Below are positions 1 to 12,534 of a DNA stretch of 12,534 nt, in pieces. Source of the stretch: a virus (taxonomy: Duplodnaviria; Heunggongvirae; Uroviricota; Caudoviricetes); the IMG/VR virus record IMGVR_UViG_2600254997_000018; one strand, given 5' to 3'. The notes under the pieces were generated by a model. That model searched no databases. It was not told the origin of the DNA and was given only the letters and a program-made list of their open reading frames with translations. A program made the position numbers and the translations under genes. Within the stretch, counting starts at the first letter, position 1. The number at the start of each line of letters is the position of its first letter.

Positions 1-104
1 CACAGCTCGTTGACAGCCTCTTCACGACTGATTCCAAGGCGAGCTGCCACCACATGTGAAGAGGCTTTTTTCAGTGCTTTCAGTGCGTCAGATACGGTTT
101 CCAT
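1..104 (-). CDS. Hypothetical protein, N-terminal part only (gene runs off the window start)
   Basis: ATG at 104..102 preceded by GGAGGA Shine-Dalgarno (complement of 112-117), 21 nt downstream of the DnaC-like stop. Open frame continues to position 1, N-terminus reads METVSDALKALKKASSHVVAARLGISREEAV. Not in the ORF track because truncated. Confidence 0.3.
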   Translation of the reverse strand, partial: METVSDALKALKKASSHVVAARLGISREEAVNEL

Positions 105-125
105 TAAAATTTCCTCCGGACAAAA

Positions 126-872
126 TTACTTCACAACCCTCATATTGCTGACATTTGGACGCCAGCTATCCCAGTTAAACGTCACCCATCGACCACCGTT
201 CATGGTCATGCGGTCCATAATCCTCTCACCAAGAAGTGTACTCATTGCGGCATGATTCAGGTTTGTTAACATCCCGACACTGCACAGTGATGCTGTCCGG
301 CGATCAATTATCTGGTGTAATACCACCTGCTCGTTTTTCGTCTCACGCTGAACGCCTATTTCATCCAGGACCAGCAAATCAACCCCGCAAAGCTCCTGTA
401 AAAATTTTTCCCCGGACTGGCCGTTGTCGTAGCTGTCATGCAACACACTCATGACGTCAGACACGGTGACGATAATCACGCTGCTCCCCTTCGCCATCAG
501 CCGGTTGCCCATCGCCGCTGCAAGGTGATTTTTCCCGGTGCCGGTTTTACCGCTGAACACAAAATTCGTGCACCCGGTCATCAGTTCGTCAGCGATGGAT
601 TTTGCCTGGCTCAGCGCGTGTTTTTGCCCGTCGTTCTGCACCTGATAATTCGCAAACGAGCATTTGCTGTGCAGAGGCTGGATGCCCGAACGATTCAGGA
701 TTTTTTCCACCCGCAACTGGCGATTCTGGCGGTTAATCTCCTCGCTGCGTTTTCGTCCTTCAGCAAGCTGCCATTCCCGCCACTCCTCCACCGTCCGGTA
801 CGGTGGAACCGCCCCCTGTGGTGCAAGTCTGCGAATACGTTCAAGAACCCCGGCTGCCGCAATGTTTTTCAT
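126..872 (-). CDS. DnaC-like replicative helicase loader (prophage-encoded, IstB-like AAA+ ATPase)
   Basis: 248-aa ORF with Walker A GKTGTGKNHLAAA and Walker B LLVLDEIG. Recalled close similarity along the whole length to E. coli DnaC and to Rac YdaV. GGGGG Shine-Dalgarno upstream of the ATG at 872. Confidence 0.9.
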   Translation of the reverse strand: MKNIAAAGVLERIRRLAPQGAVPPYRTVEEWREWQLAEGRKRSEEINRQNRQLRVEKILNRSGIQPLHSKCSFANYQVQNDGQKHALSQAKSIADELMTGCTNFVFSGKTGTGKNHLAAAMGNRLMAKGSSVIIVTVSDVMSVLHDSYDNGQSGEKFLQELCGVDLLVLDEIGVQRETKNEQVVLHQIIDRRTASLCSVGMLTNLNHAAMSTLLGERIMDRMTMNGGRWVTFNWDSWRPNVSNMRVVK

Positions 873-1355
873 GCCACGTCACCCCCTGAATCCAGGCGGT
901 ATTTCAGTGTCCGGTTCAGAAATGTGATTTACGCAACGCTGCGCGGGCGAACGCCCCAGGCGGATAACCAGTTCATCCCATTTTTCCCGGAGTTTTGCCG
1001 GACTCATGATGTGTTTTTACCCAGAACGAATCCCGCTGGACACGCCCAAACATTTCACAAATCTGCCGGTGACTACGTCCATCCAGCATACGCATCATGC
1101 GCACATCATTCGCCCAGGTCGTCCAGTTAGGTTCTCTGGGGCGTGACACCTCACCATCATCACTGGCGGCCTGTTCATACAACGCCACAACCCGTCCCCA
1201 AATCCACTGCGCACAGGTTCGACATCCTCACGGGTACCCCACTGTCGCTTCGGTACATTCCAGGTATGCGCATCCGGGTGTTTCTCCAGAAATCGCTCAA
1301 CTGGTGATGATTGTTTTTCGTCCGGCAGTGAAACGTCCGGACAAGAAGATCTTTT

Positions 1356-1507
1356 ATCTTGACGGATCAGGTTTTGATACTGACGGATCGGGGTCAATCA
1401 TCGCCCCCCTAATCGGCAGTTTTTTATCAACCGTTGATCCATCAAAATTTGACGGGTCAACCGTTGAGGGGTCAATATTTGACGGGTCAACTGTTAACGG
1501 GTCATTT
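1356..1507. repeat. Iteron-like direct and inverted repeats; putative prophage replication origin inside the initiator gene
   Basis: Core GACGG(G/A)TCA recurs at least 6 times. Two near-identical 30-bp tandem units at 1448-1477 and 1478-1507, two ~21-bp units at 1359-1400, and an AT-rich stretch follows at 1505-1545. Layout resembles lambda ori within gene O. Confidence 0.6.
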
Positions 1508-1768
1508 TTTGTCCGGGCTAATTTTTCTTTTCGGTTTATATGCCTCACGCGCCGCAGTTGCAGCTGCTTCGAGTTTTTCCACATTAAGCCGATAGATATT
1601 GCTTACGTTACGCCCACCGACCTTACGCTCTTCCTTCGTCAGCCAGCCCTCTTTCGCCAGTTCTGCAATAGCAGATTTAACGGTGGATTCACTTCTTGCA
1701 CCGATCTGACGCCGGATAGTTTCAATGGCAGGCCATGACACGCCCTCGTCATTGCTGTAGTCTAGCAA
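1502..1768 (-). CDS. Helix-turn-helix N-terminal segment of a phage replication initiator (O/YdaU-like), apparently truncated
   Basis: 88-aa ORF with HTH-like stretch AIETIRRQIGARSESTVKSAIAELAKEGWL. It starts on TTG with weak Shine-Dalgarno and contains no Met, and it ends at a stop just past a T6 run (1505-1510) inside the iteron array, so it looks like one piece of a longer broken gene. Confidence 0.5.
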   Translation of the reverse strand: MLDYSNDEGVSWPAIETIRRQIGARSESTVKSAIAELAKEGWLTKEERKVGGRNVSNIYRLNVEKLEAAATAAREAYKPKRKISPDKK

Positions 1769-1875
1769 GACGGGCCATAACCGCCACCCTGGATAAGATC
1801 ATGCCGGTGAAGGCGCACCCTTCCCAGACAAGACCATGAAGCTTGCTGCTCATAAAACCCCCGAACACCGTGCTT

Positions 1876-2301
1876 TTAGTGCATCACCACAGCATTCCCT
1901 GCCGGGCCGCCGCGATTCATCTGGTCATACAAAACAACCGCTGACGCAACAAAATCATCGACATCCTTCACCAGCCGATCCCTCCGTTCGACAATCTCAC
2001 GGTAATATTCAGAACTGTGGCTGCGCATACGGGCCACCAGCAGAGGCGGCATTGCCTTTTCGATCGCCGGTAACAGAGCCTGCATTTTTTCAACAGCATC
2101 AGGGGTGTCTTTATCCAGCCAACGGAAAATTTTCTGGGTATTACGAGCCAGGGCTTCCGGATGGCTGTCGTCGTACAGTTCCGGGAACGTCATCCCCAGT
2201 TCGAAATAAGTCCGGGCTATTTCAGCTGCAGGAACTTTCTCACCATCAGGATATGCCCAGGCATTCATCGCCATGCGGATGTGCTCATGTTTGATTTTCA
2301 T
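1876..2301 (-). CDS. ydaT: YdaT-like prophage protein (occupies the CII-like position)
   Basis: 141-aa ORF starting MKIKHEHI, immediately downstream of and overlapping the ydaS-like gene by 17 nt, as in Rac ydaS-ydaT. Assignment is from recalled similarity and synteny. Confidence 0.75.
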   Translation of the reverse strand: MKIKHEHIRMAMNAWAYPDGEKVPAAEIARTYFELGMTFPELYDDSHPEALARNTQKIFRWLDKDTPDAVEKMQALLPAIEKAMPPLLVARMRSHSSEYYREIVERRDRLVKDVDDFVASAVVLYDQMNRGGPAGNAVVMH

Positions 2302-2608
2302 GAATCATTTGCCTCTTGATGCTTCGGGTATGATCGTTTTCGTCATTTGGTTGCTTCATCGACATATTCTGCGAATAACATGACGAGCGTCGTAAGTATG
2401 TCCAATCAACATCAGGACGAAGTTCTTCACACAGGACACCACCTTTTGTTGCTCGTTCAATCGCAGGACATCTCTCAGCAGGCAACTGACGTACACCTTT
2501 GATCCATTGATTTACGCTTGGAGGAGATACACCTAAAAGCCTAGCCATTGCTGATTGCCCACCGACAACAGCACAAGCTCGTTTGAATGAATAGTTATCT
2601 TTTTTCAT
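2285..2608 (-). CDS. ydaS: YdaS-like Cro-type HTH DNA-binding protein
   Basis: Sequence MKKDNYSFKRACAVVGGQSAMARLLGVSPPSVNQWIKGVRQLPAERCPAIERA closely matches recalled Rac YdaS. Start placed at ATG 2608 (GGAG Shine-Dalgarno 8 nt upstream) rather than the track's GTG at 2629. Divergent from the repressor gene. Confidence 0.8.
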   Translation of the reverse strand: MKKDNYSFKRACAVVGGQSAMARLLGVSPPSVNQWIKGVRQLPAERCPAIERATKGGVLCEELRPDVDWTYLRRSSCYSQNMSMKQPNDENDHTRSIKRQMIHENQT

Positions 2609-2629
2609 CGAATGAACTCCAAAAAACAC

Positions 2630-2732
2630 ACAATAATATTAGGCTTAGCCTAATGTGATTGTCAATAGGCTATGCCTAACGATTCGAGAGTAGGGATTGC
2701 CTAACGCGATGCGCATAGGAGACTATTAAGCA
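2630..2732. promoter_or_regulatory. Divergent promoter/operator region between the ydaS-like and repressor genes
   Basis: Three operator-like sites about 26 bp apart: perfect 17-bp palindrome ATTAGGCTTAGCCTAAT (2638-2654), TAGGC-TAT-GCCTA (2666-2678), TAGGG-ATT-GCCTA (2691-2703). AGGAG Shine-Dalgarno at 2716-2720 before the repressor ATG at 2733. Confidence 0.5.
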
Positions 2733-3209
2733 ATGCTTAGTGGTAAAGACTTAGGCCGAGCGATAGAGCAGGCCATTAACAAAAAAATTGCATCAGGAGC
2801 CGTCAAATCAAAGGCGGAAATCGCACGTCATTTCAAAGTCCAACCACCATCAATCCATGACTGGATTAAGAAAGGTTCGATAAGTAAAGACAAACTTCCA
2901 GAACTATGGCGTTTCTTTTCTGATGTGGTTGGTCCAGAGCATTGGGGGCTTAACGAATACCCCATACCAACCCCATCCACTTCAGATACAAAAAGTGAAC
3001 TTTTAGACATAAACAGCCTTTATCAAGCCGCCTCTGATGAAAAAAGAGCAATTGTGGCTTTCCTCTTATCTGGAAATGCTACGGAGCCTAGTTGGGTTGA
3101 TCATGACGTTCGCGCCTACATTGCCGCAATGGAAATGAAGGTAGCTAACTATCTGAAAAATCAAGAATCAAAACGGAAAAGCCAGAACATCACCAAGACA
3201 GGAACTTAA
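2733..3209 (+). CDS. racR: RacR-like prophage repressor (HTH, no recognisable S24 peptidase/LexA-type domain)
   Basis: 158-aa ORF (same length as Rac RacR) with HTH-like stretch SKAEIARHFKVQPPSIHDWIKKGSIS. Divergent from ydaS/ydaT-like genes as in Rac. Identity from synteny, length and recalled similarity, not a search. Confidence 0.65.
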   Translation: MLSGKDLGRAIEQAINKKIASGAVKSKAEIARHFKVQPPSIHDWIKKGSISKDKLPELWRFFSDVVGPEHWGLNEYPIPTPSTSDTKSELLDINSLYQAASDEKRAIVAFLLSGNATEPSWVDHDVRAYIAAMEMKVANYLKNQESKRKSQNITKTGT

Positions 3210-3283
3210 ACTTATATGGTACGACGGGAAATTCCTAGTTCCCGTTAGTTAACTCCTACTACCTCTCCCACAAACCATCACCT

Positions 3284-3346
3284 ATTAGGTCGCACCCAAA
3301 TCATTAGGCGCAGCCTATTGACAGGCAATTAGGCATTTCCTATAGT
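3284..3346 (+). promoter_or_regulatory. Sigma70-like promoter (TTGACA-17-TATAGT) with flanking and embedded TTAGGC operator-like sites; putative promoter of the DUF1391-dicF-dicB operon
   Basis: -35 TTGACA 3318-3323, 17-bp spacer, -10 TATAGT 3341-3346. Palindrome TAGGC-GCA-GCCTA at 3305-3317 abuts the -35, ATTAGGC at 3328-3334 sits in the spacer, and ATTAGG also occurs at 3284-3289. Confidence 0.5.
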
Positions 3347-3527
3347 TTTCCCATACCAACCCATCCCGTCCCACACAATACAGGGCAATACCTAGAGTTA
3401 CCCGGCAGTGGTCAGGGATTAAGTAGCCAGCCCGAGGCGTATGAACATGACGGCGGGAACACTTTGTATAACAGCGCAGCAGGTTTTTAGTTCCGCTACC
3501 CCAGCGTTAAGGGGAAATGAGGTCAGC

Positions 3528-3680
3528 ATGGATACTATCGAGCTTGGCAACAACGAATCTCTGGTATGTGGCGTGTTTCCCAATCAGGACGGCACGTTTA
3601 CCGCGATGACGTATACCAAAAGTAAAACGTTTAAAACCGAAGCTGCCGCGCATCGCTGGTTAGCCAGAAACGCTAACTGA
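3528..3680 (+). CDS. ydfA: DUF1391 small protein (YdfA/YdaF-like)
   Basis: 50-aa product MDTIELGNNESLVCGVFPNQDGTFTAMTYTKSKTFKTE closely matches recalled Qin YdfA. GAGG Shine-Dalgarno 7-8 nt upstream of ATG 3528. The track's 79-aa ORF from 3441 is an in-frame upstream extension. Confidence 0.7.
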   Translation: MDTIELGNNESLVCGVFPNQDGTFTAMTYTKSKTFKTEAAAHRWLARNAN

Positions 3681-3942
3681 TTAGCGCCAGTAAAAACAGG
3701 TTTCCACAGGTTAATTTACCCTGAAAAGTCAGGGCATAACACGAAAGCGCACGGCGAGATCCCTTTGCATATAAGTCTTGTCGTTAAATTTCTTCGACCG
3801 TGCGCTTCTGGTTGTGGCAATCCGCGAAATGGCGCGGCGGTAAGTATGGCGGGGTTATTCCTTCCCCCATTGAGGACACCGGGTTGTCAGGTTGACCATA
3901 CGCTTAAGTGACAACTTCGCTACAACGCCCTCTGCTATCAAT

Positions 3943-3995
3943 TTTCTGGTGACGTTTGGCGGTATCAGTTTTACTCCGTGGCTGCTCTGCCGCCC
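3943..3995 (+). ncRNA. dicF: DicF small RNA homolog (Hfq-dependent ftsZ-targeting sRNA of Qin-type prophages)
   Basis: TTTCTGGTGACGTTTGGCGGTATCAGTTTTACTCCGTGGCTGCTCTGCCGCCC differs at one position (A to G) from the 53-nt K-12 DicF as I recall it. A T5 run follows at 3996-4000. It lies upstream of the dicB-like gene, as in Qin. Confidence 0.85.
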
Positions 3996-4169
3996 TTTTT
4001 AAAGTGAATTTTGTGATGCGGTGAATGCGGCTATGCGCACGCGGAACAGTTAAAACCAAAAACAGTGTTATGGGTGGATTCTCTGTATCCGGCGTTAATT
4101 GTTAACTGGTTAACGTCACCTGGAGGCACCAGGCACTGCATCACAAAATTCATTGTTGAGGACGCGATA

Positions 4170-4358
4170 ATGGAAACGTTATTACCAAACGTTAATACGT
4201 CTGAAGGTTGTTTTGATATTGGTGTTCTGCTCAGTAACCGGGAGTTTACTGAAGATGCCATTAAGATGAGAAAATATGAACCTTATCTTCTCAATGATAA
4301 TTCCATACTTTCCAGAATTGCCCTTCTTGAACTTGGTATTATCGGAGAACAGCAGTGA
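4170..4358 (+). CDS. dicB: DicB-like cell-division inhibitor (MinC-activating small protein)
   Basis: 62-aa product METLLPNVNTSEGCFDIGV... matches K-12 DicB in length and N-terminus as recalled. GAGGA Shine-Dalgarno upstream of ATG 4170. The track ORF 4065-4358 is an upstream in-frame extension. Confidence 0.8.
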   Translation: METLLPNVNTSEGCFDIGVLLSNREFTEDAIKMRKYEPYLLNDNSILSRIALLELGIIGEQQ

Positions 4359-4543
4359 CTTCAGCGTTTGCACTGGTGATGACCGTTTTTCTTATAACGG
4401 GTGAGCCACAAAATGTGATTACCGGAATTTATGCCAGTAAAGAATCCAGCCTCCAGGCAAGAGACGAGCAAAAAATTTCTGGTGAATGCCTACCGGTAAA
4501 AAAAGTATCGCTGTACCTGAATAACGAAACACCGGCTGGATAA
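4355..4543 (+). CDS. Small membrane protein, YdfD-like (Qin lysis-protein position)
   Basis: 62-aa ORF with an N-terminal hydrophobic helix (SAFALVMTVFLITG). GTG start overlaps the dicB-like stop (GTGA) with GGAG Shine-Dalgarno 7 nt upstream; alternative ATG at 4379. Assignment by synteny (gene after dicB in Qin is ydfD). Confidence 0.55.
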   Translation: MTSAFALVMTVFLITGEPQNVITGIYASKESSLQARDEQKISGECLPVKKVSLYLNNETPAG

Positions 4544-4638
4544 CCCGCCAGCTATATTAACGCCATACCAACGGATTAAAAATGCCAGCAATGGCAGGGA
4601 TTCGTTCACCCTGAAATCTGTAATGAGGTTAAAACACA

Positions 4639-7110
4639 ATGAGTAAAATCTTTATTTGCGCTGCTATTCCTGACGAACAGGCCATAAAAGAAGATAGCGC
4701 TGTTGCGGTGGCCACTGCCATTGAAGCCGGTGATGAGCGTCGCGCACGCGCAAAATTTCACTGGCAATTTCTGGAGCAATTCCCGGCAGCTCAGGACTGC
4801 GCTTATAAATTTATTGTCTGCGAGGATAAACCCGGCATACCCCGCCCTGCCCTCGATTCCTGGGATACCGAATATATGCAGGAAAACCGCTGGGATGAGG
4901 AGTCAGCTTCCTTTGTACCGGTCGAACCAGAATCCGATCCGATGAACGTCAATTTTGACAAGCTGTCCCCTGAAGTACAGAACGCAGTCCTAGTTAAATT
5001 CGACACATGCGAAAACATCACCGTTGATATGGTGATTAGCGCACAGGAATTACTACAGGAAGACATGGCAACATTCGGCGGACATATCGTTGAAGCGTTG
5101 ATGAAAATGCCAGAAGTTAACGCCATGTATCCTGAACTTAAACTGCATGCCATCGGGTGGGTTAAGCATAAATGTGAGCCTGGCGCTAAATGGCCTGAAA
5201 TTCAGGCAGAGATGCGCATCTGGAAAAAACGTCGCGAAGGTGAACGCAAGGAAACCGGAAAATACACGTCTGTTGTTGATCTCACCCGCGCCAGAGTCAA
5301 CCAACAGAACACTGAAAACGCTGCTGAAAAAACCGGGGCTGTCACTGTTGCCATTCGCCGCGAATACAAACAGACATGGAAAACACTCGACAATGAACTG
5401 GCCTGCGCCCTCTGGCCCGGTGATGTGGATGCAGGAAACATTGACGGTACCATCCATCGCTGGGCGACAAATGAGGTTATCGACAAGGATCGCGAAGACT
5501 GGAAGCGTATCTCAGCATCAATGCGCAAACAGCCCGAAGCACTTGGCTATGACCGTCAGACTATTTTTGGCCTTGTTCGCGAACGTCCGATCGATATTCA
5601 CAAAGATCCCGTTGCACTGAACAAATATATCAGTGAATACCTGACGACAAAGGGCGTGTTTGAACATGAAGAAACAGACCAGAGCTCTACTGATGCTCTC
5701 CAGCCGTCAGCAGCACAAACTGCTCCAGTGGAGACGGCAGAATCCGATACTCAAAAAAATGAAATCCTGGTGGAAGCTGAACCATCTGTAGAGCGTGAAG
5801 GACCATTTTATTTCGTCTTTACCGATAAGGGCGGGGAAAAATACGGCAGGGCAAACAAACTTTCTGGTCTGGACAAGGCGCTGGCTGCCGGCGGTACCGA
5901 AATCTCAAAAGAAGAATATTTTGCCCGAAAAAATGGCACATACACGGGCTTACCGCAAAATGTGGATACCGCTGAAGATTCCGAACAATCAGAGCCGGTA
6001 AAAGTTACCGCTGACGAAGTAAACAAAATTATGCAGGCAGCCAATATCAGCCAGCCTGACGCCGATAAATTGCTTGCTGCATCACGTGGTGAATTTGTTG
6101 AAGGGATTAGCGACCCGAATGATCCGAAATGGGTGAAAGGGATCCAGAGTCGCGACGCTGAGGACCAGAATCAGCCCAACGTGAAACAAAATGAGCCAGA
6201 AGCGGAACAAAACAGCCCGGATACGCAACAAAACGGGCCAGAAGAACAACAACCAGAACCAGCAGTGCAACAGGAACTGGAAAAAGTTTGCACCGCATGC
6301 GGTCAGACCGGTGGCGGCAACTGTCCTGACTGTGGTGCGGTGATGGGGAACGCAACCTACCTGGAAACATTCGATGAAGAGAATCAGGCTGAAGCTCAGA
6401 AAAATGATCCGGAGGAAATGGAAGGCACTGAACATCTGCACAAGGAGAACACTGGCAGCGATCAGTATCACGCCAGCGATAATAAAACTGGCGAAACAGC
6501 AAATCCCTTAATTAAAGTGAACGGTCATCATGAAATCTCATCCACCAGCAGGTTGTGGCACCATCTGATGATTGACCTTGAAACAATGGGAAAAAATCCT
6601 GATGCGCCAATAAACGCTATAGCCGGTAAGTTTTTTGATCCGGCAACCGGAGAGATGGGGCCAGAATTCAGCAAAACTATCGATCTGGAAACCGCAGGTG
6701 GGGTCATCGATCGGGACACCATTAAGTGGTGGCTGAAACAGTCACGCGAAGCACAATCCTCCATTCTGACCGATGAAATCACGTTGGATGATGCACTGCT
6801 GCAATTCCGGGAATTTATCGACGAAAACTCCGGTGAATTTTTTGTTCAGGTCTGGGGTAACGGTGCAACTTTCGACAACGTGATTTTACGCCGTTCATAT
6901 GAACGGCAGGGGATCCCCTGCCCGTGGCGTTACACCAATGATCGCGATGTAAGAACGATGGTTGCTCTGGGACTGGTGATGGATTTCGACGCAAGAACGA
7001 CTATTCCATTCGAAGGTGAACGCCATAACGCCCTGCACGATGCGCGTTACCAGGCAAAATACGTTTCAGCCATCTGGCAAAAACTGCTCCCGAGTCAGGC
7101 TGATTTTTAA
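4639..7110 (+). CDS. Prophage exonuclease, 823 aa: RecE/exodeoxyribonuclease-VIII-like N-terminal region, CxxC-x7-CxxC zinc ribbon, C-terminal DnaQ-like (DEDDh) 3'-5' exonuclease domain
   Basis: Intact 2.47-kb ORF with GAGG Shine-Dalgarno. Motif DKLLAASRGEFVEGISDPNDPKWVKGIQ recalls RecE. C-terminal ~190 aa carry DEDDh motifs (MIDLETMG, WGNGATFDNVIL, HNALHDARYQ). Zinc ribbon encoded at 6289-6333, acidic/Gln-rich linker at ~6160-6280. Confidence 0.85.
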   Translation: MSKIFICAAIPDEQAIKEDSAVAVATAIEAGDERRARAKFHWQFLEQFPAAQDCAYKFIVCEDKPGIPRPALDSWDTEYMQENRWDEESASFVPVEPESDPMNVNFDKLSPEVQNAVLVKFDTCENITVDMVISAQELLQEDMATFGGHIVEALMKMPEVNAMYPELKLHAIGWVKHKCEPGAKWPEIQAEMRIWKKRREGERKETGKYTSVVDLTRARVNQQNTENAAEKTGAVTVAIRREYKQTWKTLDNELACALWPGDVDAGNIDGTIHRWATNEVIDKDREDWKRISASMRKQPEALGYDRQTIFGLVRERPIDIHKDPVALNKYISEYLTTKGVFEHEETDQSSTDALQPSAAQTAPVETAESDTQKNEILVEAEPSVEREGPFYFVFTDKGGEKYGRANKLSGLDKALAAGGTEISKEEYFARKNGTYTGLPQNVDTAEDSEQSEPVKVTADEVNKIMQAANISQPDADKLLAASRGEFVEGISDPNDPKWVKGIQSRDAEDQNQPNVKQNEPEAEQNSPDTQQNGPEEQQPEPAVQQELEKVCTACGQTGGGNCPDCGAVMGNATYLETFDEENQAEAQKNDPEEMEGTEHLHKENTGSDQYHASDNKTGETANPLIKVNGHHEISSTSRLWHHLMIDLETMGKNPDAPINAIAGKFFDPATGEMGPEFSKTIDLETAGGVIDRDTIKWWLKQSREAQSSILTDEITLDDALLQFREFIDENSGEFFVQVWGNGATFDNVILRRSYERQGIPCPWRYTNDRDVRTMVALGLVMDFDARTTIPFEGERHNALHDARYQAKYVSAIWQKLLPSQADF

Positions 7111-7168
7111 TGTTCAACCCGGATCGCCGCTAACGGCATATAGTTAGCGGCGGTTGTGAGATATAGCT

Positions 7169-7372
7169 ATGAGCAGCATATTTTTAACCGAAAATGAATT
7201 GCAAACGTTAACGGGCTGCAAATATGCAAGCCACCAGCGCAACTGGTTAATAAAAAATGGGCTTCCGTTCTATACCAATCGTAGTGGAAAACCGATCGTC
7301 AGTCGGGAACTGTTTACCTGTATAAAAACTTTACCACCACGTGAGGCTGAACCTGATTTCGGTGCGATCTAA
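7169..7372 (+). CDS. Excisionase-like protein (Xis, DUF4224-type)
   Basis: 67-aa ORF directly upstream of the integrase. Its stop TAA overlaps the integrase ATG (TAATG at 7370-7374), the classic xis-int arrangement. Confidence 0.6.
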   Translation: MSSIFLTENELQTLTGCKYASHQRNWLIKNGLPFYTNRSGKPIVSRELFTCIKTLPPREAEPDFGAI

Positions 7373-8397
7373 TGGGAAGACGAAGGAAAAATCCCGAACA
7401 CGAAAAATTACCGCCAAAGGTATACCCCAATAAATATAGTTATGTATGGAAACCGACATCCAGAGAATCTGTAACCTTAACTGCAATCGAGGATGGTTTA
7501 GCCGCATTATGGAAAAAGTATGAAGAAACGGTTAACCATCGCGATCGCGCAATGACATTTGGGCGTTTGTGGGAAAAATTTCTCGCCAGCGCCTATTACA
7601 GCGAGCTTAGTCCTAGAACTCAAAAAGATTATCTGCAACATCAAAAAAAGCTGCTGGCCGTATTCGGTAAGGTGCTGGCCGATTCTGTAAAACCAGAGCA
7701 CATCAGACGATACATGGACAAAAGAGGCGAGCAGAGTAAAACGCAGGCAAACCATGAAAAAAGCAGTATGTCGCGCGTTTATAGTTGGGGGTATGAGCGA
7801 GGATACGTGAAGGCTAACCCATGTGCAGGTGTAAGTAAATTCAAGGCCAAAAACCGCGAACGATATGTAACCGACAAAGAATACCAGGCAGTATTAAGCG
7901 TTGCACCTCTTCCTGTTTTTATCGCAATGGAAATTGCCTATCTGTGTGCAGCGAGGGTTTCCGATGTGTTATCGCTGAAATGGGAGCAGATTGGAAACGA
8001 CGGGATCTTTATCCAGCAAGGGAAAACAGGGAAAAAACAGATAAAAGCATGGAGTCCACGATTACAGGCGGCGATCGAAAAAGCAAAACAGTTACCAACA
8101 TCCGCCTATGTAATCAGCAATCAATACGGCAACCGATATATGTACAAAGGCTTTAACGAAATGTGGGTAGAAGCAAGAAATCACGCAGGCAAAATTTCAG
8201 GTATTTTAACCGACTTCACCTTTCATGATCTGAAGGCGAAAGGAATTTCAGACTATGAAGGAAGCAGCCGGGATAAGCAACTTTTCTCTGGTCACAAAAC
8301 CGAAGGGCAAGTGCTAATCTATGACAGGAAGGTTAAAGTTTCACCAACACTTGATGTCCCGTTACCTGAAAATATTCCAAGAAAATATTCCAAGTAA
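7372..8397 (+). CDS. Phage integrase, tyrosine site-specific recombinase
   Basis: 341-aa ORF whose C-terminal region carries residues consistent with the tyrosine-recombinase catalytic set (R in ARVSD, H/K in HDLKAKG, Y in LIYDRK). It ends 52 bp from the 3' end of tRNA-Ser. Confidence 0.9.
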   Translation: MGRRRKNPEHEKLPPKVYPNKYSYVWKPTSRESVTLTAIEDGLAALWKKYEETVNHRDRAMTFGRLWEKFLASAYYSELSPRTQKDYLQHQKKLLAVFGKVLADSVKPEHIRRYMDKRGEQSKTQANHEKSSMSRVYSWGYERGYVKANPCAGVSKFKAKNRERYVTDKEYQAVLSVAPLPVFIAMEIAYLCAARVSDVLSLKWEQIGNDGIFIQQGKTGKKQIKAWSPRLQAAIEKAKQLPTSAYVISNQYGNRYMYKGFNEMWVEARNHAGKISGILTDFTFHDLKAKGISDYEGSSRDKQLFSGHKTEGQVLIYDRKVKVSPTLDVPLPENIPRKYSK

Positions 8398-8449
8398 TTC
8401 CAAGTGTGATTTTTGTCACTGACTTAATGATGTGTAAGTGATTGAATTT

Positions 8450-8539
8450 TGGCGGAGAGAGGGGGATTTGAACCCCCGGTGGAGTTGCCCCCACTCCGGT
8501 TTTCGAGACCGGTCCGTTCAGCCGCTCCGGCATCTCTCC
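8450..8539 (-). tRNA. serU: tRNA-Ser (anticodon CGA)
   Basis: Reverse complement reads GGAGAGATGCCGGAGCGGCTGAACGGACCGGTCTCGAAAACCGGAG...TCTCTCCGCCA: 7-bp acceptor stem, anticodon loop CU-CGA-AA, long variable arm, encoded CCA. Matches E. coli serU as recalled. Confidence 0.9.
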
Positions 8540-8632
8540 GTTCAGATGGTTGCCATGATGCCAGGAAATTTGGCATTTTAACAGTCCCTGTCCGTGCAAT
8601 TTTGTTCAAGTGACGAGTTTGCGAGCAAAACG

Positions 8633-9430
8633 ATGATTAAGTGGCCCTGGAAAGTACAAGAATCAGCACATCAAACTGCCCTTCCCTGGCAGGAAGCACT
8701 ATCGATCCCCCTTTTAACGTGTCTGACAGAACAGGAACAAAGCAAATTAGTCGCTCTTGCCGAACGTTTTTTACAACAAAAACGGCTTGTTCCTTTACAG
8801 GGCTTTGAGCTGAATTCATTAAGAAGCTGCCGGATAGCACTTCTATTTTGCCTGCCCGTTCTGGAGTTAGGACTGGAATGGCTGGATGGTTTTCATGAAG
8901 TCTTAATTTATCCTGCGCCATTTGTGGTCGATGATGAATGGGAAGACGATGTCGGTCTGGTGCATAACCAACGTATTGTTCAGTCAGGTCAGAGCTGGCA
9001 GCAAGGGCCTATCGTTTTGAACTGGTTGGATATACAAGATTCTTTTGATGCTTCTGGTTTTAACCTGATTATTCATGAAGTCGCTCATAAGCTGGACACC
9101 CGTAACGGCGATCGCGCCAGCGGAGTTCCCTTTATTTCGTTGCGTGAGGTTGCTGGCTGGGAACACGATCTTCATGCTGCAATGAACAACATTCAGGAAG
9201 AAATCGAATTAGTTGGTGAGAATGCGGCGAGCATTGATGCTTATGCTGCCAGTGATCCTGCTGAATGTTTTGCCGTACTTTCTGAATATTTCTTTAGCGC
9301 CCCAGAACTTTTTGCTCCTCGTTTCCCTTCATTGTGGCAACGTTTCTGTCAATTTTATCAACAAGATCCTTTGCAGAGACTGCATCACGCTAATGATACA
9401 GACTCGTTTTCGGCGACGAATGTTCATTAA
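8633..9430 (+). CDS. mtfA: MtfA, Mlc titration factor A (zinc-dependent peptidase, HEXXH motif)
   Basis: 265-aa product from ATG 8633 ([20 protein letters not shown]...) matches E. coli MtfA as recalled, including the HEVAHKLD motif. The track ORF 8594-9430 is an upstream in-frame extension. Sits between serU and asnT as in K-12. Confidence 0.9.
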
Positions 9431-9483
9431 TTAACAACTTTGCAGATTAATTAACCAATTGAAATGGCTTATGAAATTTAGTG

Positions 9484-9512
9484 TTGACAGACAAGGTACC
9501 GCTAAGTAATAT
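9484..9512 (+). promoter_or_regulatory. Sigma70 promoter for tRNA-Asn (TTGACA-17-TAATAT with GC-rich discriminator)
   Basis: TTGACA at 9484-9489, 17-bp spacer, TAATAT at 9507-9512, followed by GCGCCCC, typical of stringently controlled tRNA promoters. tRNA starts at 9531. Confidence 0.5.
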
Positions 9513-9530
9513 GCGCCCCGTTCTCACGAT

Positions 9531-9606
9531 TCCTCTGTAGTTCAGTCGGTAGAACGGCGGACTGTTAATCCGTATGTCACTGGTTCGAGTCCAGTCAGAG
9601 GAGCCA
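9531..9606 (+). tRNA. asnT: tRNA-Asn (anticodon GUU)
   Basis: TCCTCTGTAGTTCAGTCGGTAGAACGGCGGACTGTTAATCCGTATGTCACTGGTTCGAGTCCAGTCAGAGGAGCCA, 76 nt, matches E. coli tRNA-Asn as recalled. Copy assignment (asnT) is by position next to mtfA. Confidence 0.95.
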
Positions 9607-9694
9607 AATTCTAAAGATTCGCTTTTTTAGCGCAATGTCACTGCTCTTAGTTGAGCATTGCTTTTTAACGGATAGCGGGTTTTTGACATCTTAA

Positions 9695-9726
9695 GCGCCC
9701 TCAATCTTCATGGTTGAGGGCGTTTT
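9695..9726 (+). terminator. Rho-independent terminator-like hairpin downstream of tRNA-Asn
   Basis: 9-bp GC-rich stem CGCCCTCAA / TTGAGGGCG (9696-9704 / 9714-9722), 9-nt loop, then TTTT at 9723-9726. Confidence 0.5.
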
Positions 9727-9892
9727 GCTATGAACGCCATCACCATTTTCCCCTCGATTATAAAACTTGAGTAATTCAGTAGTCTCCCCTCTTGCAACTC
9801 ACACCCAAAACTGCTTAACGAAAAGTTATTAATTTTCAATCATATTGCTATCAGGATCTACTTTTTTTCGCTGTGCTAGAAAGGGCGCATTT

Positions 9893-10838
9893 ATGTTAGC
9901 TCGTTCAGGGAAGGTAACCGTGAAGGTTACTGGCAACTCAAGCACCGCCCATGTTGCTAGCTTTATCGCTGATCCATCGACTATCGCCGCCACCAACAGT
10001 GATTTAAGTACCTTAAAGGCAACGGTTGAGGATGGCAGTGGTAACCTGATCGAAGGTCTCACTGTGTACTTCGCCTTAAAAAGCGGCTCCACCACATTAA
10101 CGTCATTAACAGCAGTGACCGATCAAAACGGAATCGCGACAATAAGCGTGAAAGGAGCGATAACGGGGAGCGTCACTGTAAGCACAGTCACAAGCAAACA
10201 GTAGATATATCGCTAGTGGCAGGCCCAGCAGACGCCTCGCAGTCCATCCTTAAGAACAACCAGTCATCACTGAAAGGGGACTTTACCGATAGTGCTGAGC
10301 TACATCTTGTTCTGCACGATATATCAGGCAATCCGATCAAAGTTTCTTAAGGGATGGAATTTGTGCAATCAGGTACAAACGTGCCCTATATGAAAATTAG
10401 CGCAATTGATTACAGTCAAAATATCAACGGTGATTACAAAGCTACTGTTACAGGAGGCGGAGAGGGTATCGCAACGCTGATCCCCGTATTGAATGGTGTT
10501 CATCAGACGGGCCTGAGTACCACGATAGAATTCATTAGCGCGGAAACCAGACCAATGACCGGTACAGTGTCAGTGAATGGTGCAAACCTACCGACAGCTT
10601 CATTCCCTTCGCAGGGATTTACCGGGGCGTATTATCAGTTGAATAATGACAGCTTTGCACCAGGAAAAACGGCGGCTGATTATTTGTTTCAAGCTCGGCC
10701 TCCTGGGTAGGCGTTGATGCTACTGGTAAAGTGACATTCAAAAATGACGGTGATAGCAATACTGTAATAATCACAGCGCCCCCAAGATCCGGTGGTGCTA
10801 TTTACCAAACAGTTCCGCATGAATCGCGTTCGGTGTGA
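9893..10838 (+). pseudogene. yeeJ: 3' remnant of a yeeJ-like inverse-autotransporter adhesin gene (bacterial Ig-like domains), frameshifted
   Basis: Ig-like-domain-type sequence (VTVKVTGNSSTAHVASFIADPSTIAATN..., ...ISGNPIKVS, EFVQSGTNVPY...) continues across at least three frames (shifts near 10200, 10350, 10700). Only ~1 kb lies between asnT and the next gene, versus ~7 kb for intact yeeJ. Gene name is from K-12 synteny. Confidence 0.45.
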
Positions 10839-10965
10839 CTATGATCATTTTCGGTGAGTATTGCTTTGCTCCAAAGGCTGGTTTTCTGTGATGATTGACC
10901 AGCCTCAGAGTATTGATGACACTACCGTTCATAACAGATCGGCATTACTATGCATAAGTACTGCC

Positions 10966-11196
10966 TCAAATTCTCGCCAAAACACTTTTTAATGCCTTTG
11001 CGAATTCATCCAGACTTATATTGTCAATTTTTTGCCCAACGATGACTGACTCCGAAACATCGGCCATTGCGGGCCATCGCGTTTTGTAATCAGCATAAAT
11101 TGCAACAACAGAGGTATTATAGGCACTTGCCATATGTAATATTGAGGTGTCAGGAGTTATTGCAATATAAGCATCTTTTATGATTGCTGCTGAACG
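10966..11196 (-). pseudogene. C-terminal fragment of a glycosyltransferase family 9 (heptosyltransferase-like, yeeL-like) gene, cut by IS10
   Basis: About 76 codons (ITPDTSILHMASAYNTSVVAIYADYKTRWP...) resemble GT9 C-terminal regions. The track ORF's first 13 codons are IS10 end sequence, so the reading frame enters the IS at 11197. Confidence 0.45.
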
Positions 11197-11209
11197 CTGA
11201 GAGATCCCC

Positions 11210-12419
11210 TCATAATTTCCCCAAAGCGTAACCATGTGTGAATAAATTTTGAGCTAGTAGGGTTGCAGCCACGAGTAAGTCTTCCCTTGTTATTGTGTAG
11301 CCAGAATGCCGCAAAACTTCCATGCCTAAGCGAACTGTTGAGAGTACGTTTCGATTTCTGACTGTGTTAGCCTGGAAGTGCTTAGTCCCAACCTTGTTTC
11401 TGAGCATGAACGCCCGCAAGCCAACATGTTAGTTGAAGCATCAGGGCGATTAGCAGCATGATATCAAAACGCTACTGAGCTGCCCGTTCGGCTATGGCGT
11501 AGGCCTAGCCCGTAGGCAGGACTTTTCAAGTCTCGGAAGGTTTCTTCAATCTGCATTCGCTTCGAATAGATATTAACAAGTTGTTTGGGTGTTCGAATTT
11601 CAACAGGTAAGTTAGTTGCTAGAACCATGGCTCCTTTGCCGACGCTGAGTAGATTTTAGGTGACGGGTGGTGACAATGAGTCCGTGTCGAGCGCTGATTT
11701 TTTCGGCCTTTAGAGCGAGATTTATACAATAGAATTTGGCATGAGATTGGATTGCTTTTAGTCAGCCTCTTATAGCCTAAAGTCTTTGAGTGACTAGATG
11801 ACATATCATGTAAGTTGCTGATAGGTTTCCAGTTTTCCGCTCCTAGGTCTGCATATTGTACTTTTCCTCTTACTCGACTTAACCAGTACCAACCCAGCTT
11901 CTCAACGGATTTATACCATGGCACTTTAAAGCCAGCATCACTGACAATGAGCGGTGTGGTGTTACTCGGTAGAATGCTCGCAAGGTCGGCTAGAAATTGG
12001 TCATGAGCTTTCTTTGAACATTGCTCTGAAAGCGGGAACGCTTTCTCATAAAGAGTAACAGAACGACCGTGTAGTGCGACTGAAGCTCGCAATACCATAA
12101 GTCGTTTTTGCTCACGAATATCAGACCAGTCAACAAGTACAATGGGCATCGTATTGCCCGAACAGATAAAGCTAGCATGCCAACGGTATACAGCGAGTCG
12201 CTCTTTGTGGAGGTGACGATTACCTAACAATCGGTCGATTCGTTTGATGTTATGTTTTGTTCTCGCTTTGGTTGGCAGGTTACGGCCAAGTTCGGTAAGA
12301 GTGAGAGTTTTACAGTCAAGTAATGCGTGGCAAGCCAACGTTAAGCTGTTGAGTCGTTTTAAGTGTAATTCGGGGCAGAATTGGTAAAGAGAGTCGTGTA
12401 AAATATCGAGTTCGCACAT
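11210..12419 (-). pseudogene. IS10 transposase, frame-disrupted (N-terminal 266 aa intact, middle and C-terminal parts in other frames)
   Basis: ORF 11619-12419 matches IS10 Tnp from MCELDILHDSLYQF... but stops at ...AKEPWF*. The expected continuation VLATNLPVEIRTPKQ... is in another frame, and the C-terminal ...HFQANTVRNRNVLSTV...GYALGKL is in ORF 11210-11419. At least three indels within ~200 bp. Confidence 0.8.
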
Positions 12420-12480
12420 CTTGTTGTCTGATTATTGATTTTTCGCGAAACCATTTGATCATATGACAAGATGTGTATCT
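12412..12480 (+). ncRNA. IS10 antisense RNA-OUT (predicted from position in IS10)
   Basis: Established IS10 layout puts pOUT about 115 bp from the outside end, transcribing outward. The window shows the expected stem: CGCACATCTTGTTGTC (12413-12428) pairs with GACAAGATGTG (12465-12475). GATC at 12467-12470. Confidence 0.5.
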
Positions 12481-12534
12481 ACCTTAACTTAATGATTTTT
12501 ATCAAAATCATTAGGGGATTCATCAGGCGTAGCG

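Follow-up and report, generated by a model that had tools for sequence, protein, structure and literature searches.

What is left of the adhesin gene yeeJ beside asnT in this DNA, and what kind of event removed the rest of it? YeeJ of Escherichia coli K-12 MG1655 promotes biofilm and belongs to the type Ve, or inverse autotransporter, adhesins (PMC5595812); an intact yeeJ is carried by ~35-40% of genomes, rarely by those of B2, and its truncation beside asnT is frequent (literature including PMC5595812). In the 12,534-nucleotide stretch analysed here (the window), an initial annotation had placed a frameshifted ~1-kb 3′ remnant of yeeJ between 9607 and 10838, and had suggested that it may mark a past excision or an IS-mediated deletion. 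Based on the alignments and the genome census reported here, we propose that window 9918-10812 very probably represents what remains, in non-functional form and at the usual chromosomal site, of the inverse-autotransporter adhesin gene yeeJ, which decayed through two large deletions of the illegitimate kind, a nonsense codon and two small deletions. The remnant as such is already known, as a RefSeq pseudogene in E2348/69 and its relatives, and frequent yeeJ truncation beside asnT has been published; our literature search found no paper on the E2348/69 remnant specifically, only general reports of truncated yeeJ. What is added here are the exact junctions, a second (3′) deletion, the order of events, and negative evidence on the involvement of islands or IS elements.

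Setting and extent of the yeeJ-derived segment

The segment lies between the following neighbours, of which the two tRNA genes were located by ARAGORN and Rfam:

8450-8539, minus strand: tRNA-Ser(CGA)
9531-9606, plus strand: asnT, tRNA-Asn(GUU), intact
9607-9917, plus strand: native asnT-yeeJ spacer and yeeJ 5′ leader, colinear with K-12 L004 2626-2936
10815-10965, plus strand: remaining yeeJ-yeeL spacer, colinear with K-12 L004 10126-10276
10966-11196, minus strand: 3′ end of a family-9 glycosyltransferase (GT9) gene, the yeeL homologue and usual downstream neighbour of yeeJ, interrupted by IS10 at 11197

An intact mtfA ORF, ending at 9430, lies between both tRNAs, and E. coli K-12 has the same order serU - mtfA - asnT, continuing with yeeJ, the yeeL pseudogene and shiA. 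The remnant occupies this same conserved slot, after mtfA-asnT and before yeeL/GT9-shiA, and shares the arrangement asnT - yeeJ - yeeL - shiA with K-12 MG1655; both flanks are colinear with K-12 at 96.6-96.7% identity (blastn). When window 9401-11300 was compared by blastn with the K-12 reference locus (L004, in which the long yeeJ CDS spans 2939-10015, 7077 nt and 2358 codons), exactly three blocks were obtained, all colinear:

Block 1, window 9401-9917: K-12 L004 2420-2936, 96.7%
Block 2, window 9916-10795: K-12 L004 8782-9672, 89.2%
Block 3, window 10815-11196: K-12 L004 10126-10507, 96.6%

The 311-bp asnT-yeeJ spacer is intact within the first block, which ends 2 nt short of where the yeeJ ATG would stand. 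A hairpin at 9693-9725 in this spacer, with a T-run after it, is read here as the putative asnT terminator. A consensus scan for promoters and terminators gave counts no higher than those in shuffles, the Rfam gathering scan of the window returned only the two tRNAs, DicF and the IS10 RNA-OUT, with no match within 9607-10965, and the ORF list held no convincing minus-strand gene in the remnant region.

At the protein level, tblastn with K-12 YeeJ as query recovered three ordered pieces in three frames, covering residues 1947-2248 with a joint E of 5e-134, and no further match to the YeeJ N-terminus anywhere in the window:

9911-10192, frame 2: YeeJ residues 1947-2040, 92.6%
10195-10689, frame 1: YeeJ residues 2046-2210, 85.5%
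10689-10805, frame 3: YeeJ residues 2211-2248, 74%

The gene-derived DNA runs from 9918 to ~10812 (895 bp), is colinear with codons 1949 to ~2250 of K-12 MG1655 yeeJ (b1978) at ~89-90% nucleotide identity, and keeps only ~13% of that gene. It is made up of three segments:

Segment A, 9918-10193, plus strand: frame 2, YeeJ codons 1949-2040, one Big_1/Invasin_D3 Ig-like domain
Segment B, 10194-10686, plus strand: frame 1, YeeJ codons ~2046-2210, broken by TAA at 10348-10350
Segment C, 10690-10812, plus strand: frame 3, YeeJ codons 2211 to ~2250, part of an Invasin_D4-like region

The alignment to K-12 yeeJ that the initial annotation had called for located both the deletion junctions and the indels and found the pieces colinear. 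Its description of Ig-like sequence running through at least three frames was borne out, the frames being 2, 1 and 3 in order, and so was its view that most of the gene is deleted and the rest frameshifted, which agrees with the RefSeq annotation of E2348/69. Its boundaries have to be moved. The Ig-like sequence, said to start about 290 bp past tRNA-Asn, is indeed present but begins at 9918, 311 bp after the tRNA; the interval from 9607, which had been counted with the gene, is as far as 9917 the native K-12-colinear spacer. The proposed end at ~10838 is no more than the stop of the frame-3 ORF of segment C, which continues into the downstream spacer to a TGA at 10836-10838, while the homology itself ends at ~10808-10815. 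Of the "3′ remnant of yeeJ", the identity of the gene stands, by colinearity and synteny, whereas its being the 3′ end does not, since the last ~110 codons and the stop codon are deleted and both termini are missing.

In domain content, the remnant shares the Big_1/Invasin_D3 Ig-like domains with K-12 YeeJ: Pfam identified Big_1 (E = 4e-16) and Invasin_D3 in the first piece; a weak second Invasin_D3 match (E = 1.3e-3) fell under the Pfam cut-off. Compared with the K-12 gene, it is without signal peptide, LysM domain, beta-barrel and C-type lectin, and carries two frameshifts and one nonsense codon. Measured against the inverse autotransporters (type Ve: intimin, invasin, YeeJ), the N-terminal signal peptide, LysM domain and beta-barrel are gone with codons 1-1948, the tandem Big_1 passenger persists only as a vestige of one complete Big_1/Invasin_D3 domain, the pieces give no Intimin_C match (Pfam) that would represent the C-type lectin cap, and the reading frame is interrupted by a 13-bp deletion, a TAA codon and a 1-bp deletion. 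The remnant thus lacks every trait of a working inverse autotransporter save a vestigial Ig domain.

Lesions, their distribution and the order of events

Five lesions separate the remnant from the K-12 gene, the small ones being placed by MAFFT alignment with K-12, S88 and SC477:

9916-9919, plus strand: 5′ deletion junction, K-12 L004 2936 joined to 8782/8784
10193/10194, plus strand: 13-bp deletion, missing GCGCAGGTGGAAT (present in S88 and SC477), frame 2 to frame 1
10348-10350, plus strand: nonsense codon GAA>TAA (GAA in K-12 and S88, TAA also in SC477)
10687-10689, plus strand: 1-bp deletion, TTTT>TTT, frame 1 to frame 3
10808-10815, plus strand: 3′ deletion junction, K-12 L004 ~9673-9690 joined to 10126

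The 5′ deletion removed 5847 bp (3 x 1949), from 2 nt before the start codon through codon 1948. The published domain map (PMC5595812) assigns to these codons the signal peptide, the LysM domain, the beta-barrel and the majority of the Big_1 repeats. With a slash at the breakpoint, the window reads GGGAAGGTAA/CCGTGAAGG; the corresponding K-12 sequences are GGGAAGGTAA/GCATGGCT (start codon) and CAGACAA/CCGTGAAAG (codon 1948/1949), and AA is common to both sides. The junction sequence is wholly accounted for by K-12 spacer and yeeJ, so no residual island DNA is present there.

At the other end, yeeJ homology stops at ~10808-10815 and the sequence resumes at K-12 L004 10126, 110 bp past the K-12 stop codon, possibly across a GAA microhomology. 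The ~440-450 bp lost span the final ~110 codons with the stop codon, plus 110 bp of spacer. In K-12, Pfam matches to Invasin_D4 and the Intimin_C lectin domain lie at the C-terminus beyond the end of the remnant, that of Intimin_C at residues ~2265-2339, and the remnant stops at ~2250; the last ~110 YeeJ codons correspond to the C-type lectin cap that is standard in this adhesin class (literature including PMC5595812). This second deletion took the lectin domain and the stop codon, and the remnant is therefore a sub-terminal fragment. Allelic divergence, instead of a deletion, was also weighed as the source of the 3′ difference from K-12 and was rejected because the spacer resumes exactly at L004 10126 and the lectin cap is standard in the class.

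The comparison with related strains, likewise proposed in the initial annotation, was made with S88, SC477 and a census of 5426 complete E. coli genomes, and shows which lesions are shared. By megablast, 9607-10900 is 100% identical to EPEC O127:H6 strain E2348/69, over a span that includes its pseudogene E2348C_RS28910 (NC_011601.1 2140466-2141360, "invasin domain 3-containing protein"), and 99.7-99.9% identical to 13 further genomes. RefSeq describes E2348C_RS28910, which equals window 9911-10805, as frameshifted, with an internal stop, incomplete, and missing both N-terminus and C-terminus. With the remnant identical, the window strain differs from E2348/69 in the added prophage at serU and the IS10 in the downstream glycosyltransferase gene. 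For the window as a whole the best match is Z1323HEC0423 (99.9% over 1-11196), which likewise has a prophage beside serU.

The two large junctions differ widely in frequency. The 5′ junction occurs in 20 of the 5426 genomes: the 17 close relatives match it at 100%, with an exact 895-bp span in every one of these alleles, and three soil/water isolates, the SC477 group, match it at 95.9%. The 3′ junction, scored with a probe of 100 bp across the junction that was counted when covered to at least 80%, occurs in 2067 of the 5426 (38%), among them B2 ExPEC strains such as S88 and B2 strains with HPI. SC477 has both junctions and the TAA codon, is without the 13-bp and 1-bp deletions, each of which is confined to the E2348/69-type allele in the alignment with K-12, S88 and SC477, and carries a 10-bp insertion of its own. 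The allele of S88, to which the remnant is closest (97.4% by blastn over 895 bp including indels, 98.9% over aligned columns), has the identical 3′ junction and hence the same loss of the lectin domain.

From this sharing of lesions among genomes, the most parsimonious order would be as follows. The ~440-450-bp deletion that takes the C-terminal lectin domain and the stop codon would have come first; the 5847-bp deletion and the GAA>TAA change, common to the three environmental isolates of the SC477 group, would have followed; and the 13-bp and 1-bp deletions would have arisen last, in the E2348/69-type lineage. The remnant now probably drifts neutrally with no functional product. Compared with SC477, the window shows 1.7-3.3% divergence in spacer and remnant and 0.4% in the flanking mtfA and GT9 coding sequences, and the greater divergence of spacer and remnant fits unconstrained drift. 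In practice, the two junctions may serve as lineage markers, one rare and one common.

Origin of the deletions and coding potential of the remnant

Both large deletions would be products of ordinary illegitimate recombination at 2-3 nt of microhomology, which is all that the junctions contain; simple illegitimate deletion is the best reading of both, a mechanism that we infer from the sequence. The initial annotation had instead pointed to island activity at the asnT hotspot, in which case the 5′ truncation would have been left behind by a genomic island, through HPI or ICE excision, or by an IS element that deleted adjacent DNA. Several points favour such an origin: HPI inserts at asnT, its usual integration site, E. 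coli HPIs have a unique right-border deletion reaching the adjacent backbone (PMC2606025), and the asnT/HPI neighbourhood may account for many truncated yeeJ genes (PMC5595812). In the HPI-bearing strains S88 and ATCC 11775 a truncated yeeJ does lie beside fyuA (PMC2606025, PMC5595812), and both share the 3′ junction of the window allele; in NCTC9087 an IS3 element lies beside a different yeeJ truncation; and in the window itself IS10 is found 385 bp downstream. However, the HPI-linked deletion destroys the asnT-yeeJ spacer. In S88 and ATCC 11775 the yeeJ that comes after fyuA begins at K-12 L004 3214 and has lost more DNA internally; in S88 the right end of HPI stands in place of the spacer and of the first ~275 nt of yeeJ, ~2.4 kb of the internally deleted gene is left, and no match to window 9633-9915 exists. 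The window, in contrast, has no HPI, a whole and K-12-colinear spacer, and only 0.9 kb of yeeJ. Since it keeps the spacer that the HPI event removes, the 5′ deletion was a separate event, on a chromosome where the spacer was still joined to yeeJ.

The junctions themselves point the same way. The 3′ end of asnT is intact, the 17-bp att core CCAGTCAGAGGAGCCAA at 9591-9607 within it occurs in single copy, and no second att copy in the window and no duplicated att at the junctions was found. Neither 9917/9918 nor ~10812 has an IS end or repeat, the repeat search detected no IS terminal repeats and no direct or long repeats flanking either junction, and no foreign block is apparent by composition; both junctions are also free of island DNA. 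None of the 17 close relatives with these two junctions has the IS10 copy, which is therefore a later, unrelated arrival elsewhere. Had an island with intact borders been excised precisely, no scar would be expected, and such an event stays formally conceivable; yet an island or IS origin of the 5′ truncation appears improbable, and the suggestion of a past excision or IS-mediated deletion was not upheld.

That the short gene might stem from misassembly, its repetitive Ig-domain array having collapsed as is reported for other repetitive adhesin genes, is barely credible. A published caution holds that some apparent yeeJ truncations may be assembly errors (PMC5595812), and suspicious single-base indels do occur elsewhere in the window. 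Against this, the 5′ breakpoint lies in the unique leader outside the repeats, the same 895-bp sequence recurs in 17 complete assemblies that are independent of each other, four of them separate O127:H6 records of the E2348/69 type, and a repeat collapse would have left the non-repetitive beta-barrel and LysM regions in place.

A third alternative is that the remnant is alive, the yeeJ leader having been fused in frame to codon 1949 so that a short protein with a retained or new role is expressed. The length of the deletion, 5847 bp, is divisible by 3, ATG 9893 and GTG 9920 sit behind the native GGAAGG leader, and the ORF at 9893-10204 (103 aa), composed of leader and segment A, holds one complete Big_1 domain. 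With the native leader kept and the deletion in frame, this ORF could in principle be translated. Its product, however, would be without signal peptide, beta-barrel or LysM domain and would have no route to the cell surface; the ORF ends where it does only through the lineage-specific 13-bp frameshift, and SC477 reads differently; the remnant diverges at the rate of the non-coding spacer; PGAP calls a pseudogene in all relatives; and one deletion in three would be in frame by chance. Retained activity is therefore highly improbable, and still more so is its most specific version, a small cytoplasmic stand-alone Ig-like (Big_1) protein made from the native yeeJ promoter and leader and kept for a new role in the E2348/69 lineage. 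Any function of the remnant is, on these grounds, very unlikely.

The analysis confirms that the EPEC E2348/69-type lineage is without the YeeJ adhesin, so that YeeJ can make no contribution to biofilm or adhesion in these strains. Beside asnT, yeeJ has been inactivated several times independently, whether by plain deletion or in events linked to HPI or IS3, which agrees with what has been published; the result has little import beyond correct annotation. For comparison, the HPI right end (fyuA) in S88 (L007 7095-9902) and in ATCC 11775 abuts a ~2.8-kb multiply deleted yeeJ, and in NCTC9087 (L003 7570-10889) an IS3-family element lies upstream of a 1.5-kb yeeJ remnant without its N-terminus, with no asnT annotated there.

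Prophage and IS10 in the same window

Window 1-8397 is a Rac-like lambdoid prophage segment abutting serU, with the following features:

126-872: DnaC-like ATPase
2733-3209: racR-like repressor
3944-3995: DicF sRNA (Rfam)
4639-7110: 823-aa exonuclease
7372-8397: tyrosine integrase, an open 341-aa ORF in the window

In two prophage-carrying relatives for which the annotation was fetched, the integrase CDS is longer (1051 bp) and marked as frameshifted. E2348/69 has no prophage at serU, and zinT adjoins serU there.

The IS10 (ISVsa5) copy at 11197-12534 is ~99% identical to canonical IS10 and lies inside the GT9 gene, which is intact in E2348/69 and Z1323HEC0423; more widely, this gene is an intact 350-codon CDS in E2348/69, SC477, S88 and others (L001 11360-12412), and its K-12 counterpart, yeeL, carries a pseudogene annotation. 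RNA-OUT was located at 12412-12481 (Rfam). Past the end of IS10, the 8 bases GCGTAGCG (12527-12534) fail to match both TGCTGAACG, the 9-bp target duplication that would be expected, and the next bases of the glycosyltransferase gene; a deletion or rearrangement may thus have placed other DNA on the far side of IS10.

The IS10 transposase reads as three ORFs owing to three single-base indels (11384 +A, 11474 +A, 11624 -C). Within the 750 bp of window 1013-1764 there are six single-base insertions relative to Z1323HEC0423, and the prophage helix-turn-helix/replication gene is split into short ORFs. Taken together, these changes suggest that the source assembly contains indel errors or else that the DNA has truly decayed locally; no such indels touch the yeeJ remnant, whose sequence is 100% identical to that of E2348/69.
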